Positions 3,001 to 50,283 are shown, numbered from the stretch's first letter. The stretch is DNA of 64,000 nucleotides from a virus (IMGVR_UViG_3300030331_006276), one strand, 5' to 3'. Notes: a model not told the origin generated them from the sequence alone. Numbers and translations are program-made.

Positions 3001-5968
3001 TGCTTTCAACGGAAAGTTTTGCTGCTAATCTATCGCTCCCGTCATAAAGAGCTAATGCTTTGCTGTCACCTTTCAGTGTTAACAAATCTGGTGGGCTAGT
3101 GCACCCTATACCAACATTACACGAAAAAAGAACATTTCCGTTAGTAGCGCTAAGACCACCATTAGCACTTACGCTTCCAGCTACAGTTAGTTGCGTACTG
3201 CTTTGACAAGCTATGCTGTTACCAATTGTATCTGTATCAGACCAAACTGGTATAAAGTTAGCTGTACCGGTACCATCAACATTACCTGAACTAGTTGCAA
3301 AGATATCAGCTAGATCTCTTCCAGCAGAAACAAAACCTCCATTGGTAGAGTTAGCACTAACAGAACAAGCTTGAACTGCATTACAAGCGCTTATGTTACC
3401 AGCTACTGTAAGCTTTTTATTTGGCGCTGTAGTACCTATACCAACTTTACCGGATGATGGCATTAGTACATTATAGGTTAATTGATTAACTCTAAATAAA
3501 TGAGTACCGTTACCTGCTTCTACTCTTAATCCATCAAAATTACCACTTGAACCACCACCACAAAATACTGCTAAATCTCTATCAATTGTTTTAAGAGCCG
3601 ATACTTGCAAATATGATGACGGTCGGTTTGTGTTAATTCCAACGTTACAAGCGAAAAAATTAGGAGCTTTTGTTGCGCTGAGGCCACCGCACGCACTTAT
3701 GTTACCAGAAACAGTAAGTTTTTGTCCTGGGCTCGTACTACCTATACCTACATTACCATCTCCATTGAAGAACATCTCTCTACGACCATCGGTAGAGTTA
3801 AAAATAGTTAAGCCACCACCTAGATTTCTAAATTCGTATGTATCATCCCCAGCTCTTTGTAAAACAAAACCGTATTGAGTTCCCGAGCCTTCTACTTTTA
3901 CACTACCATCTTTTACATGTAATGATGTAGTTGGACCAGTAGTACCTATACCAACATTGCATGCAAAGAAATTTTTTGCTTCTGAAGCACTAAGGCCACC
4001 GCATGCACTAATATTACCTTTTACAGTAACATTGCTATTAAATGTAGCAGCTCCGCAATTAGACATATCAAGTCTTAAAGCTTCAAAATTTCCAGAAGAA
4101 GCACCACAAAAGACCATGTCCTTATTATTAGATTTGGCATGTATTATTAAATTACAACTATTATTTGTAATTCTTCCATACTCAACACCATTATCTTTAA
4201 GTTTAATATTTCCGCCATCGCCATCGAGAATAATATCACCACCTGCATCTATAGTTAAATCACCTCCGTCAGATATGGTTGAATCATTTAGAGTTATATC
4301 ATCTACTGTTAAAGAACATAAAGTACCTAATGATGTTACACAGGGTTGTGCAGCAGTTTGTAATGTGCCAGTGATATTTGTACCAATAATATTTGTACCT
4401 TGAATATCACCACAAGCAGATATATCACCAACAACAGTAAGTTTTTCATTTGGTGTTGCAGTGCCAATACCAATATTGCCTCCATCAGTTATAGCAATAA
4501 AGCCTCTTTCAATTAATCCGGTATTTAAATAATGACCAAACTTAGCTACATTATTACTTCTATCAAATCTTATAGCAGCATATCTAAAGTTACCATCAAT
4601 TGCTGAAACACCAGCAAGGGAGTATCTATCATTTCCATCTGTGCTAAATGACAGAATATTTCCTACTGCCTGAAGTTGTGCAATACTGGACGGACTCGTT
4701 GTACCAATACCGACTTTACCATTTATAGTAATGCCTGTATCAATAGCTGATATTACACTATCACCTAAAGTATCCGTATCATTCCATTGTGATATCTTAA
4801 ACTTTGTACCCGACCCATCAACATTACCTGAGCTTGTAGCAAAGATGTCTGCTAAATCTCTTCCAGCGGAAACAAAACCATTGTGTGTTGATCTAGCACT
4901 AAGACCATCGAAAGCAGTAATACCGCGAGATGTAGTTATATTATTAGAAAATGTTTTAATACCACCTATAGTTTGTGTACCAGTAGTTCGAACTACAGAA
5001 CTATTAACACCAACGGTATTTGCATTTACAGTTATACCGTCACCAAAACCAACACCAAGGGAAACATCACCTGTACTTCCTCCTCCAGTTAACCCCGGTC
5101 CAGCAGTAACGCTAGTTATATCACCAATATTAGTTGTAAATATATCTGCAAGATCTCGACCAGCTGAAACAATACCATTATTTGTTGATGTTGCACTTAT
5201 TGAATTACCTACTAAAGTATTACTGCAAACTGAAGTTGTACCACATATAGCAGGGCTACAAACTGAAGTTGTACCGCATATAGCAGGACCACAAATTGCA
5301 GTTGTACCACATATAGCAGGACTACAAACTGAAGTTGTACCACATATAGCTGGACTACAAATTGCAACACTTGCGCTTAAAGACCCTGTGGTTCTAGTCA
5401 TATTAGAACCACCACTTAGTAAACTATCAGTTAGAACTGTAGATCCTGACCATGCTGGTATAAAGTTTGTAGTACCTGATCCACATACACTTCCAGAGGA
5501 AGCAGTAGTTACAAATATATCTGCAAGATCTCGACCAGCTGAAACAATACCATTATTTGTTGATGTGGCACTTAATGATAGACCTTTAATAAAACCTGTA
5601 GAACTTACATTACCAGCAATAGTAAGCTTTTCATTTGGTAATGCAGTATTAATACCTAAATTACCACTATCTGCAAAATTTATTACTCCCCCCTCTTGAT
5701 CAACAAATTCTGCGATAGGTTGATTTGCACCTTTTTGTCTTACATATAAAGCTGGTCCAGTACCATTATTAATAACTGACAGAGCAGAAGTCGACGTTAC
5801 AATAGTTTTCGTAAATGTGGCAGATGTTGCTTCAAACTCTGTTGCAGTTAATTTAGTAAACGTTGCGTTAGTACCAGTAAGAGCATTCAAGAAAGCATTA
5901 CCACCCACAGACAAATCCTGTGTGATAGTTGCACCATTCTTTACCTTAAAATCTTTGTTTAATGCCAT
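1..5968 (-). CDS. Long modular tail fibre/adhesin protein (>=1,989 aa, runs off window start; absent from ORF track)
   Basis: ATG at 5968 (MALNKDFKVKNG...). Same frame open at all points checked (5702, 4802, 3302, 1982, 362, 2). Repeated GNVGIGTxxPxxKLTVxGNISA and 6x SAGRDLADIF motifs. Late promoter ATAAATA at 5998-6004. Not every codon was checked. Confidence 0.85.
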   Translation of the reverse strand, partial: MALNKDFKVKNGATITQDLSVGGNAFLNALTGTNATFTKLTATEFEATSATFTKTIVTSTSALSVINNGTGPALYVRQKGANQPIAEFVDQEGGVINFADSGNLGINTALPNEKLTIAGNVSSTGFIKGLSLSATSTNNGIVSAGRDLADIFVTTASSGSVCGSGTTNFIPAWSGSTVLTDSLLSGGSNMTRTTGSLSASVAICSPAICGTTSVCSPAICGTTAICGPAICGTTSVCSPAICGTTSVCSNTLVGNSISATSTNNGIVSAGRDLADIFTTNIGDITSVTAGPGLTGGGSTGDVSLGVGFGDGITVNANTVGVNSSVVRTTGTQTIGGIKTFSNNITTSRGITAFDGLSARSTHNGFVSAGRDLADIFATSSGNVDGSGTKFKISQWNDTDTLGDSVISAIDTGITINGKVGIGTTSPSSIAQLQAVGNILSFSTDGNDRYSLAGVSAIDGNFRYAAIRFDRSNNVAKFGHYLNTGLIERGFIAITDGGNIGIGTATPNEKLTVVGDISACGDIQGTNIIGTNITGTLQTAAQPCVTSLGTLCSLTVDDITLNDSTISDGGDLTIDAGGDIILDGDGGNIKLKDNGVEYGRITNNSCNLIIHAKSNNKDMVFCGASSGNFEALRLDMSNCGAATFNSNVTVKGNISACGGLSASEAKNFFACNVGIGTTGPTTSLHVKDGSVKVEGSGTQYGFVLQRAGDDTYEFRNLGGGLTIFNSTDGRREMFFNGDGNVGIGSTSPGQKLTVSGNISACGGLSATKAPNFFACNVGINTNRPSSYLQVSALKTIDRDLAVFCGGGSSGNFDGLRVEAGNGTHLFRVNQLTYNVLMPSSGKVGIGTTAPNKKLTVAGNISACNAVQACSVSANSTNGGFVSAGRDLADIFATSSGNVDGTGTANFIPVWSDTDTIGNSIACQSSTQLTVAGSVSANGGLSATNGNVLFSCNVGIGCTSPPDLLTLKGDSKALALYDGSDRLAAKLSVESTEDGALRLYERGSSKILLNANTNAVNFINPSNGKLGIGYDFNAVNTGGGSLQIAGDVGIGTNNPNEKLTVAGNISACGSLSGASLHTTGNVCVGNILTIPAGSAGSPSLTFSSDTDTGLFNRTAGELNVAIGGSWIANFQSTGLKIYAGTGIFNRNGSAAAPSYTFSDDTDTGMFRVGANCLGFTTNGTNALTIDSSQNICASGSLSSTSLHTTDTTRGIVSAGRDLADIFCTTSNPGTVTEVVGCDGITVNNGTGCACVCVDSTVVRTTGAQTIGGTKNFCDSICVGGSIFHTGDTDTRIAFSDDLIITCVGGEEAIRADTTGVIINQPGNANDFRVEGDGDTHALFVDGSADKVGIGTSSPGQKLTVAGNISACGGLSATEGAGYFDCNVGIGTNRPESLLHVSSNSSESQLRIESDNGNGDPFLHFKLDSGSDYSMGIDDDASNNFKISRAATLGTNDIIEVDSTTANVYCNLLVGEADGTLDGSRLEVWSTNSQSPFSITNTDNSNRKVLDSAFNSNHPRFSIFNASAVETIRLETNGVSYFNGGNVGIGNTAPGQKLTVAGNISACGGLSATNGVGYFACNVGIGTTSPSKPLDVIGDIKSSASLVGNAAVVNQVTAGTAGGSILFKNNSGTNRAIITDAGDTGIGTTSPQARLQVNVANQGKFAFAIGNDSYTGGNPRHELLMLNNGSLQWYMPDDGSTPGKIEFYSRDNSDFFFTLDSDTSNVGIGNQSPTEKLTVDGNICASGALSGASLHTTDTTRGIVSAGRDLADIFCTTSNVGTVTDVVGCDGITVNNGTGCACVCVDSTVVRTSGTQCIAGAKTFSDDICVANKIIHDGDSNTFIQLANDIAVVSTGGEEHIRACNGGIIINDNGNPNDFRVEGDADTHALFVDGSADKVGIGTSAPGEKLTVSGNISANGGLSATGSAFNYFNGRVGIGTVAPEAPLHVNSTGGTLAQFHRSGTQLVTIGGSSNQGQIRFQQGSDCISTGATTGGD
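5226..5368. repeat. 33-bp tandem repeat, ~4.3 copies, coding SPAICGTTSVC
   Basis: Units start at 5226, 5259, 5292, 5325 and 5358 (partial). Confidence 0.95.
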
Positions 5969-31524: not shown

Positions 31525-31935
31525 TGGTGGAGGTGAGGGGGATCGAACCCCTGTCCATTAAGTTATCATAATAACTTTCTACATACTTAGATATATTCTA
31601 TTTTAAGGATATACGGTTATATCAACCATCCTACATTTCTTTAAATTAGTAATGCTCTAATCTAGCTGTTTATTACGCTAATCGCTATATTAACAACTCA
31701 TTTCGTTACCCAAACACTTTAATGAGAATCCATGCTTGTTTGTTATGCGGCGAGAAGCGCATCTTCTTGAACCAAGAACGCGTCTGGGTTGTTGAAGATG
31801 GCTTCTGCTTCCGCAAGAAGGTCTGCTTCTTCTTGTTCTGCAGTTAGGTTTTTAATCGGCTTTTAACGTGGCCAACCGATCAACCACGATATGCGAGCTA
31901 TAAATCCTACATAATGTCGAATCCATGGCACCCCC
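31525..31935 (-). ncRNA. ssrA: tmRNA (411 nt); tag AEQEEADLLAEAEAIFNNPDAFLVQEDALLAA*
   Basis: 5' GGGGGTGCCATGGATTCGAC; 3' GGGGTTCGATCCCCCTCACCTCCACCA; resume context CTAACT-GCA at 31841; stop at 31743-31745. Confidence 0.95.
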
Positions 31936-41905: not shown

Positions 41906-42106
41906 CTATTGATGTACTAGAGTAAATGCAACTCGATCTTCTCCTGGAATCGCTTGAATATCGGCATCAATGATTGGTACTTGAACTTCTTCTCCATCCA
42001 TAGTTCCGCAAGTTCCAATCTTTCCGATAATTATCTCAGAAAAATCATTAACGTAATTATGCTTCTCAAAGAATTTGATATGCTCTTTTAGCTCACCTAA
42101 TCTCAT
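41906..42106 (-). CDS. Hypothetical protein
   Basis: ATG 6 nt after the promoter TATAAT. Confidence 0.7.
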   Translation of the reverse strand: MRLGELKEHIKFFEKHNYVNDFSEIIIGKIGTCGTMDGEEVQVPIIDADIQAIPGEDRVAFTLVHQ

Positions 42107-42200
42107 ACTATTATTATATCTAAGTTCCTTACTCCCACCTAGCCTCTCCCTTTCGGGTTGTAGGCGTGAAGATTTTGACGCCTCGTTAATTGCTAGGAGC

Positions 42201-42323
42201 AGACCTGGGCAGGATTCGAACCTGCATTCCTTCTATAGACGCACCGGTGCGCGCATCGCGGCGTATGGTACCGTTCGCCGCTTGGTTTTTTACAGAAGGT
42301 CTTCCCTATTAGATGACCGGGTC
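42201..42323 (-). ncRNA. tRNA-like RNA (123 nt) with a 53-nt structured insert replacing the anticodon loop
   Basis: Acceptor GACCCGG/CCAGGTC; D-arm-like ATCT-AATAGGGA-AGAC; 9-bp CCTTCTGTA/TATAGAAGG stem; perfect T arm GCAGG-TTCGAAT-CCTGC; own promoter. Confidence 0.75.
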
Positions 42324-42344
42324 ATATTTTATTCTTATATTATA

Positions 42345-49976: not shown

Positions 49977-50053
49977 TGGTAGGAGCGGTGGGACTCGAAC
50001 CCACACTGGACGGATTTTAAGTCCGTTGTCTCTGCCAATTGGACTACGCTCCC
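49977..50053 (-). tRNA. tRNA-Leu(TAA), short variable loop
   Basis: GGGAGCG...ACGGA-CTTAAAA-TCCGT...GGTTCGAGTCC...CTACCA. Confidence 0.92.
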
Positions 50054-50055
50054 TT

Positions 50056-50131
50056 TGGTGCGCCCGGCTGGACTTGAACCAGCGACCTGCCGATTATGAG
50101 TCGGATGCTCTAACCACTGAGCTACAAGCGC
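50056..50131 (-). tRNA. tRNA(CAT), Ile2-type
   Basis: CCGACTCATAATCGG; GGTCGCTGGTTCAAGTCCAGC as in ileX-type tRNAs; CCA end. Confidence 0.88.
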
Positions 50132-50167
50132 TTTCATAATCATATTATATCTGAGTTCCTTTAGTAT

Positions 50168-50239
50168 TACTCCTACCAAGAATCGAACTTGGATCTAAGC
50201 ATTAGAAGTGCCTTGTTTTATCCGTTAAACTATAGGAGC
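50168..50239 (-). tRNA. tRNA-Arg(TCT), CCA not encoded
   Basis: AGGCA-CTTCTAA-TGCTT; CCAAG-TTCGATT-CTTGG. Confidence 0.88.
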
Positions 50240-50283
50240 ATAATATTATTATATCGAAATTTCTAGATTTTCAAACAATAAAC

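Follow-up and report, generated by a model that had tools for sequence, protein, structure and literature searches.

Positions 42,201 to 42,323 on the minus strand of a viral DNA of 64,000 nucleotides (nt), IMGVR_UViG_3300030331_006276 (the whole stretch analysed, here called the window), belong to a phage gene for a small RNA made of two parts, of which they are the 5' half; the gene carries a promoter box. A preliminary description had seen in them a stand-alone 123-nt gene, for an RNA shaped like a transfer RNA (tRNA) whose anticodon loop is replaced by a 53-nt two-hairpin domain. Our results show instead that a far more conserved half of the same unit lies just 3' of it, at 42136-42199. 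We consider it probable that the whole, inferred steps included, is a phage RNA gene in which a non-decoding tRNA mimic is joined to a junction domain.

Read on the minus strand from 42323 to 42201, the sequence contains every element that had been named, and its minimum-free-energy (MFE) fold is a cloverleaf with a forked anticodon arm, exactly as proposed (z = -3.3; none of 200 shuffles was as stable). The acceptor stem, GACCCGG/CCAGGUC, has 7 base pairs (bp) including one C.A mismatch (42323-42317 with 42208-42202), the D arm (42313-42300) combines a 3-bp stem with a loop that contains GG, and the T arm, GCAGG-UUCGAAU-CCUGC, is perfect (42225-42209). The 'anticodon' stem is extended to 9 bp with one G.U pair (CCUUCUGUA/UAUAGAAGG, 42299-42291 with 42237-42229) and encloses exactly 53 nt, 42290-42238, in which two hairpins are found. 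The discriminator is U (42201). CCA is not encoded, position 3-70 is C3-G70 rather than G3-U70, and there is no 7-nt anticodon loop; the preliminary description had likewise noted the lack of CCA, of G3-U70 and of a canonical anticodon. Two of the checks that it had proposed, ARAGORN and Rfam, place the RNA in no known family: ARAGORN makes no call at 42201-42323 and Rfam 15 gives no match at gathering thresholds. At E values up to 10 only chance-level matches appear, to SpF41 (16.7 bits) and YrlA (14.4 bits), and even there the window copy does not match the Rfam tRNA model (RF00005, threshold 29 bits).

Evidence that this fold is maintained comes from its relatives. In the first one found (L008), the tRNA-like half is ~83% identical to the window copy. 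Its acceptor stem has paired changes from A-U to G-C and from G-C to A-U, with the C.A mismatch repaired to U-A, its T stem has an A-U to G-C change, its anticodon stem has lost one base pair from both strands, and its hairpin 1 is still formed from an entirely different sequence. Pattern scans extended this to a group-1 set of 37 distinct sequences, in which 93% of alignment cells are paired and 18 pairs have changed on both sides; none of 500 shuffles matches this pairing and covariation, and slid controls are 38-48% paired. Covariation is seen in all stems, with both-side changes in 4 of the 7 acceptor pairs, 2 of 3 in the D stem, 4 of 9 in the anticodon stem, 3 of 6 in hairpin 1, 4 of 5 in hairpin 2 and 1 of 5 in the T stem, and RNAalifold arrives on its own at the same acceptor stem, T arm and hairpin 2, and at the helices downstream. 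The bases that make the tertiary contacts of a tRNA (U8, A14, G18G19, A21, T54-T55-C56 and A58) are invariant or at least 90% conserved in these homologues, so the 7-bp acceptor, D arm, T arm and tertiary bases of a tRNA cloverleaf are all present, and the L-shape with its elbow is under selection, as those bases hardly change. The G.U pairs that are frequent in the stems occur on the minus (RNA) strand only, which suggests that selection acts on RNA rather than DNA.

These observations also bear on whether the locus could be an element of the DNA (palindromes bound by proteins, an origin, a site of recombination) or a tRNA pseudogene in decay. Its hairpin tips read as perfect palindromes in the DNA, and the unit moves as a cassette between genomic contexts, as such an element might, but compensatory changes and strand-specific G.U pairs in all stems, retention of the tertiary bases, conservation in at least ~190 contigs of very different phages and the presence of a promoter leave this reading disfavoured and, in our estimate, very improbable. 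What does vary is the identity of the acceptor end. More than 50 acceptor stems occur across the family, G3-U70 is rare among them, and the discriminator is U in 69% and A in 22%; acceptor stem and discriminator thus carry no constant identity. One relative (L040) holds two paralogues of the whole two-part RNA, 2 kb apart (about 360-600 and 2420-2617), which differ in the palindrome of one hairpin loop (loop A, GUGCAC and GGUACC) and have the other (loop B) in common.

The RNA does not decode. A decoding tRNA has a 5-bp anticodon stem and a 7-nt loop with U33 and an anticodon, and the window copy has the 9-bp stem and 53-nt fork in their place. The insert varies by lineage, from none at all (a tetraloop) to three hairpins, with two in most relatives and three in L138, so the 53-nt domain is not the fixed replacement of an anticodon loop that it had been taken for. 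In the insert-less alleles the stem is closed directly, as CCUCC-UAAU-GGAGG in L039, as CUUC-UAUA-GAAG in L118 and L129, and with the loop CGCA in L082. L039 scores 32.2 bits against the Rfam tRNA model, above threshold, with only the anticodon loop deleted, and therefore the body is tRNA-derived but headless. A selenocysteine tRNA was considered and rejected, as no loop contains UCA, the acceptor has 7 bp and the Rfam tRNA-Sec model does not match.

Alleles of this kind also decide whether the gene could encode a decoding tRNA with a short intron that is removed after transcription. Tip inserts do sit at the usual site of tRNA introns, tRNA genes of Lak megaphages carry inserts published as 'enigmatic introns' (PMC6784885), and some members of our family have a very tRNA-like body (L015, 49.7 bits with the Rfam tRNA model). 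The site of insertion, at the anticodon position, is the same in the Lak genes, but our family lacks an anticodon loop with or without the insert. Natural insert-less alleles, which stand in for the excision experiment suggested in the preliminary description, end in a 4-nt and not a 7-nt loop, the window insert has no U33-NNN-purine context at its borders, and ARAGORN with introns allowed either finds no gene or returns anticodons and intron limits that differ among close relatives, so that removing the insert yields neither a canonical loop nor a shared anticodon. The intron reading is largely refuted and we find it scarcely credible; that the insert is no group I intron, as first stated, was upheld. 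Together, the covariation among 37 homologues and the tetraloop alleles point to a genuine non-decoding tRNA mimic with the look of an expressed gene, as had been proposed.

The tip of the anticodon arm (42238-42290) is Y-shaped, with an A-rich linker and the two hairpins that had been singled out for their stems, GCGGCG/CGCCGC and GCGCAC/GTGCGT. Hairpin 1 (42258-42281, stem GCGGCG/CGCCGC) carries the palindrome GGUACC in its loop (42272-42267), hairpin 2 (42239-42252, stem GCGC(A)/(U)GCGU) carries ACCGGU (42248-42243), and both stems covary. Such loops are general in the family: at least two separate clusters of 6-nt palindromes are present in 66 of 80 distinct inserts, compared with ~26% of shuffles, and no insert is without a cluster (0 of 80), compared with 36% of shuffles. 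In a second group of loci, group 2, hairpin A has a loop of 12-14 nt centred on UCUAGA, ACUAGU, CCUAGG or ACAUGU, and hairpin B has a 5-bp stem and a 7-nt loop, YUGAUCA, UAGCUA or UAAUUA. Among hairpins of this 5-bp, 7-nt form, 31 of 68 have a palindrome at loop positions 2-7, where 1.6% would be expected. Across the family one loop site stays palindromic through UCUAGA, ACUAGU, CCUAGG, ACAUGU, GGUACC and GUGCAC, and the other through UGAUCA, UAGCUA, UAAUUA and ACCGGU. The preservation of palindromes through change is what would be expected if the hexamers pair with a second copy of themselves, and we infer that the loops may mediate self-association of copies. Elsewhere, a hairpin loop in RNAIII of phage T5 (L202 485-590, minus strand), UAUUCUAGAA, closely resembles the group-2 hairpin-A motif UAUUCUAGAUA.

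The 3' half is a conserved three-way-junction domain (42136-42199, minus strand), which our covariance model of it, R1, scores at 52.5 bits in the window. A linker G (42200) separates the discriminator from the first conserved C of the closing helix; across copies, the base after the discriminator is G in 93 of 106 (88%) and the next is C in 101 of 106 (95%). The domain is closed by the 8-bp helix P1 (42199-42192 with 42143-42136), within which follow the junction AAUUAAC (42185-42191), the invariant hairpin P2, GAGGCGU-loop-ACGCCUAC (42160-42184), AA (42158-42159), P3 with the sequence CCC-GAAA-GGG (42148-42157) and AGAG (42144-42147). Outside P1 stands a 3' tail, GGAGUA (42130-42135), which is invariant in the 37 group-1 sequences, and GG follows P1 in ~90% of all members. 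Conservation here is of another order than in the tRNA-like half: between L008 and the window the junction domain is ~99% identical, whereas the tRNA-like half has diverged by 17%.

As in the upstream module, the helices of the domain are supported by covariation. P1 covaries extensively, as does an optional fourth helix, P1a, flanked by GUAG...GAAC, and P3 appears as CCC/GGG, UCC/GGA, UGC/GCA, ACC/GGU and CCA/UGG under GNRA or UUCG loops; the domain helices are paired in 97% and 92% of cells, and 0 of 500 shuffles are as good. P2 shows no variation, even in a scan that left it free and in an R1 search of all loci, which returned neither a P2 variant nor a second, diverged copy at any locus. 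The domain spans 58-75 nt across members, and its junction bases are invariant whatever the G+C content of the host.

Two other roles were tried and rejected. A tag-coding miniature transfer-messenger RNA (tmRNA), or any coding function of the 3' domain, fails on the reading frames, which are not conserved between groups, and mimicry of ribosomal RNA (sarcin-ricin-loop flank or L1 stalk) fails in local alignment to the E. coli rrn operon, which is no better than for shuffles; blastn against E. coli genomes likewise found nothing. In the MFE fold of the full 194-nt RNA, 42201-42194 pairs with 42137-42130 to form a different outer helix. This pairing, UGCUCCUA/UGGGAGUA (42130-42201, minus strand), would sequester the discriminator and compete with P1. 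Group-1 RNAs might switch between the two states; covariation cannot choose between this helix and P1 in group 1 because the tail is invariant. A four-way alignment of the window copy offered by R1, pairing the acceptor 3' strand with the 3' tail, was discarded, as the acceptor stem changes among relatives with no matching change in the tail, which is invariant.

The core of the domain was found in at least 191 loci (~190 phage contigs) from IMG/VR and metagenomes, and in exact form in only 3 of ~185,000 species-representative prokaryote genomes, all of them contigs of metagenome-assembled genomes. IMG/VR gave no exact match to a 24-mer taken from the T arm and acceptor stem. Counted to the innermost 7 bp of P1, and taking as abutting a module that ends 2-5 nt before it, the tRNA-shaped module abuts the domain in 94 of the 121 distinct copies whose upstream flank was long enough to judge, with a linker of 1-2 nt after the discriminator. 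An ordinary decoding tRNA is practically never the upstream partner. The unit usually lies inside tRNA arrays or early-gene regions, for example in contigs with 16 and 21 tRNA genes, and in some loci the domain stands ahead of tRNAs. It also occurs on its own, in Tetrasphaera phage TJE1 (L022 2502-2560; NC_019930 37777-37835), where it has a TTGACA-type promoter of its own in an unannotated gap of 1.7 kb and is followed by ~130 nt and then a terminator.

The invariant P2 hairpin, AACGAGGCGUC...CACGCCUAC, is present in three more cultured phages. In Pseudomonas phage Psa21 (L204) and Erwinia phage pEa_SNUABM_29 (L205) it lies in annotated tRNA regions, and the record of E. coli phage Jgk1 (L203) is unannotated. 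The Psa21 copy (L204 291-480; NC_062581 about 295129-295418), judged by eye and from its MFE fold, has a like layout of tRNA-shaped module, UG linker and four-way junction, with a plain hairpin in place of the T arm. No description of this RNA family was found in the literature when searched by core sequence and keyword. Some loci show further features beside the unit. Group-2 loci (e.g. L013-L016) have a conserved 5' leader, UAGUUCUUUUGAUA, after the promoter and ~30 nt upstream of the tRNA-like module, and in some members the 3' strand of the acceptor stem is a possible pairing partner for this leader, by way of G.U pairs. The group-2 viral contig L016 also encodes a manA RNA (1094-1304, Rfam 88.1 bits). 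In L154, a viral contig of 117 kb, the junction domain precedes a tRNA array, and ARAGORN finds there a tRNA with a CUA (amber suppressor-type) anticodon (3736-3806).

A small domain so close to a tRNA-type 3' end could be a new self-cleaving ribozyme, one whose cut, just after the discriminator and before the conserved G, would generate the 3' end of the CCA-less tRNA-like RNA without host enzymes. Theta ribozymes of gut phages provide the precedent, lying within +/-1-5 nt of the 3' ends of phage tRNAs (Kienbeck et al. 2024, PMC10879173). Like our domain, they are small and structured, start a few nt from a tRNA-type 3' end and usually have G as first base, and this shared position suggests a role in 3'-end formation. 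The fixed short linker in 94 of the 121 copies and conservation at the putative site (N73, then G, then C) would fit, and so would the make-up of the domain, which with its 58-75 nt, covarying helices and unchanging junction bases is patterned like a small ribozyme. However, no Rfam ribozyme model matches, even at E values up to 10, and the domain folds as a plain three- or four-way junction. Ribozymes like that of hepatitis delta virus (HDV), to which theta belongs, are defined by a nested double pseudoknot (P1, P1.1, P2, P3 and P4), a catalytic C in J4/2 and self-cleavage 5' of G1. An HDV-like fold was tried for the 3' domain and rejected, with no HDV-type match in Rfam and a failed threading by eye, as nothing conserved lies 3' of P1 to form P2 and P4. 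The two also differ in company, since theta ribozymes adjoin ordinary or suppressor tRNAs in gut phages and our domain adjoins a non-decoding mimic in phages that are mainly marine, freshwater or from soil; its occurrence alone behind its own promoter in TJE1 is equally awkward for a processing role. A self-cleaving domain therefore seems to us unlikely, if worth keeping in view.

Other tRNA mimics in which T arm and elbow are retained and something else stands at the anticodon end are YrlA (RF02553), tmRNA (RF00023) and SpF41 of Streptococcus (RF02435), and the SpF41 consensus is, like our insert-less alleles, capped by a tetraloop on its 'anticodon' stem. The window RNA falls short of the SpF41 threshold of 52 bits, as does L039 with 22.9 bits. 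In YrlA the acceptor stem is closed and the molecule opens at its other end, where the 5' and 3' termini make up the Ro-binding stem. The window RNA ends at its acceptor stem and scores far below the YrlA threshold of 69 bits, which confirms that it is not permuted like the YrlA RNAs.

A relationship to tmRNA was also considered. The layout, in which a long stem takes the position of the anticodon arm and leads to a small functional domain, recalls tmRNA and might indicate ribosome rescue or ribosome binding. In a single relative, on the high-GC viral contig L149 (3111-3191, minus strand), the module just upstream of the junction domain is the tRNA-like domain of tmRNA alone, with 64.5 bits for the Rfam tmRNA model, 312 model positions deleted and G3-U70 present. 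The features by which tmRNA is recognized are G3-U70, a stemless D loop, a tag reading frame and pseudoknots; the window RNA, in contrast, has C3-G70, a true D stem, no tag frame and no pseudoknots, neither ARAGORN nor the Rfam tmRNA model calls it, and the same phage already has a full tmRNA (31525-31935). For the window RNA we regard a tmRNA-like role as highly improbable.

The preliminary description had also suggested a decoy for anticodon nucleases. The variability of the insert and the total absence of an anticodon loop argue against it, as there is nothing for known anticodon nucleases to cut. A broader form of the proposal would have the RNA serve in anti-defence or host takeover, as a decoy for a host factor that reads the acceptor end or elbow of tRNAs, such as a toxin or a processing or modifying enzyme. 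Strict retention of the acceptor, T arm and elbow beside an anticodon end free to vary, the early-type promoter, and an arms-race pattern of inserts that diverge fast between close relatives, with two paralogues in L040, are consistent with this. The wide variation of acceptor stems and discriminator means, however, that no specific tRNA identity is mimicked, clustering of neighbouring open reading frames (ORFs) revealed no linked defence or counter-defence gene, and the invariant 3' domain is left unexplained; we consider the decoy quite doubtful.

The closest known systems are RNA C (species 1 RNA) of phage T4 and RNA1 of phage T5, both of them small, stable and encoded by the phage within or next to a cluster of tRNA genes. 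In T4 rnaC a canonical T arm and an acceptor-like closing stem go with long extra arms and no anticodon, and rnaD adjoins it. T5 RNA1 is annotated as a 'tRNA-like stable RNA with unknown functions' and is followed by RNAI and RNAIII, an order of tRNA-like RNA and then other structured stable RNAs that resembles the two-part layout described here. Non-decoding tRNA look-alikes of T4 and T5 have been known for some 50 years and, to our knowledge, have no assigned function. As read from its sequence, the window RNA belongs to the same descriptive kind, phage tRNA-like stable RNAs, by its T arm, acceptor-type stem, lack of an anticodon and location. The suggestion of a new tRNA-mimic class was borne out in that the RNA fits no Rfam family, but is too strong for the tRNA-like half alone, because such RNAs have long been known. 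Beyond the kind the resemblance ends: there is no sequence similarity between the T4 and T5 RNAs and the window family, R1 finds nothing in those regions, the invariant AAC-GAGGCGU...ACGCCUAC-AA-P3-AGAG core is absent from both, and the regular D arm and forked anticodon arm with palindromic loops are features of the window family only. ROOL and GOLLD, large phage-associated RNAs that often lie beside tRNA genes and are reported to self-assemble, offer a looser parallel, being also phage-borne, tRNA-adjacent and elaborately structured. The window RNA is much smaller (~190 nt), matches neither in Rfam, and would self-associate only on the evidence of its loops.

The window itself is phage DNA that encodes a ribonucleotide reductase, a sigma factor and proteins known only from PHROG. 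Closely related DNA is found in IMG/VR, in viral contigs that reach 171 kb, and no cultured phage matched the neighbourhood at the DNA or protein level (blastn and tblastn). ARAGORN finds three ordinary tRNAs and one tmRNA in the window, all away from 42201-42323. The promoter box of the unit, the early-type ACGAACT-N4-TATAAT (42355-42339), is present as first described, is kept upstream of homologues and is 1 of 21 minus-strand copies of a recurring promoter-like box, for which 0.39 would be expected in the window by chance. That box, written AGGAACT-N4-TATAAT, occurs on the minus strand in all 21 copies, between 39165 and 53200 and elsewhere, and several copies lie between and after tRNA genes at 49977-50240. 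From TATAAT to G1 of the tRNA-like module the stretch is 42324-42338, of which the downstream ~8 nt are probably a 5' leader; homologues have a similar A-rich leader ending in AAAAUAU/C. On the 3' side the unit is limited by the promoter box of the next gene (42113-42129, minus strand), which serves the ORF at 41906-42106, and no terminator was found between the RNA unit and that box. The tmRNA gene of the window (31525-31935, minus strand) is full-length, with 133.7 bits in Rfam, and its tag is unusually long, with 32 residues ending in ALLAA; a relative (L004, 17080-17495) has a tmRNA homologue with a related tag.

If the gene is indeed a non-decoding tRNA mimic joined to a junction domain, the unit would be transcribed early and, since there is no terminator, read through. 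Host ribonuclease (RNase) P would cut at G1 (42323), and a 3' tRNA-processing endonuclease of RNase Z/BN or RNase E type would cut after U42201; alternatively, the junction domain may stay attached, or may itself separate or trim the halves. Like T4 RNA C and T5 RNA1, the product would be a stable, tRNA-like RNA that does not decode, its L-shaped body giving stability and access to the tRNA-handling machinery, and its self-complementary loops would pair with those of other copies, so that two or more molecules associate. The working surface would be the invariant P2 with the flanking AAC, AA and AGAG junction bases, acting either on a partner that bacteria of different phyla have in common or through catalysis of its own. 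Phages of high-GC Actinobacteria and phages of AT-rich marine hosts have an identical core, so its partner should be either universal in bacteria or, in the case of catalysis, the RNA itself.

Several points weigh against this scheme. Only the shape of the RNA points to cleavage by RNase P and by a 3' endonuclease. With the domain alone in TJE1 and ahead of tRNAs in other loci, the two halves may be merely co-transcribed. Perfect palindromic tips could come from templated mutation in quasi-palindromes rather than from selection, and the hairpins are not essential in the group-1 lineage, because four alleles do without them. The invariance of P2 stems in part from the collection, because most search patterns fixed P2. 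Clustering of 3,963 ORFs from the neighbourhoods gave no conserved neighbour protein that would suggest a partner; the families found (DUF932, GP88, L5 gp82-like and DUF7249) include no RNA enzyme. For these elements together, namely that the tRNA-like half and the junction domain make up one undescribed and widespread phage RNA class, that the scaffold self-assembles through two covarying self-complementary loops, and that the P2 core is catalytic or a ligand of some host component whose conservation reaches from Actinobacteria to marine Proteobacteria, we can speak only tentatively, and see them as a possible rather than a likely combination.

Examination of these phage RNAs may help with an old question in the field. 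An alignment as large and diverse as this one, with at least ~190 loci and clear structural constraints, could make the question of the T4/T5-type look-alikes testable, and the candidate working surface, P2 and the junction bases, is sharply defined. Annotation pipelines currently miss all these genes. Probable relatives occur in culturable phages (TJE1, Psa21, pEa_SNUABM_29 and E. coli phage Jgk1), so that experiments are feasible. If the junction domain proved to be catalytic, it would be a new class of small ribozyme tied to tRNA-end processing, and if the loops mediate assembly, these phages would have a compact, natural case of RNA self-association built on a tRNA scaffold.

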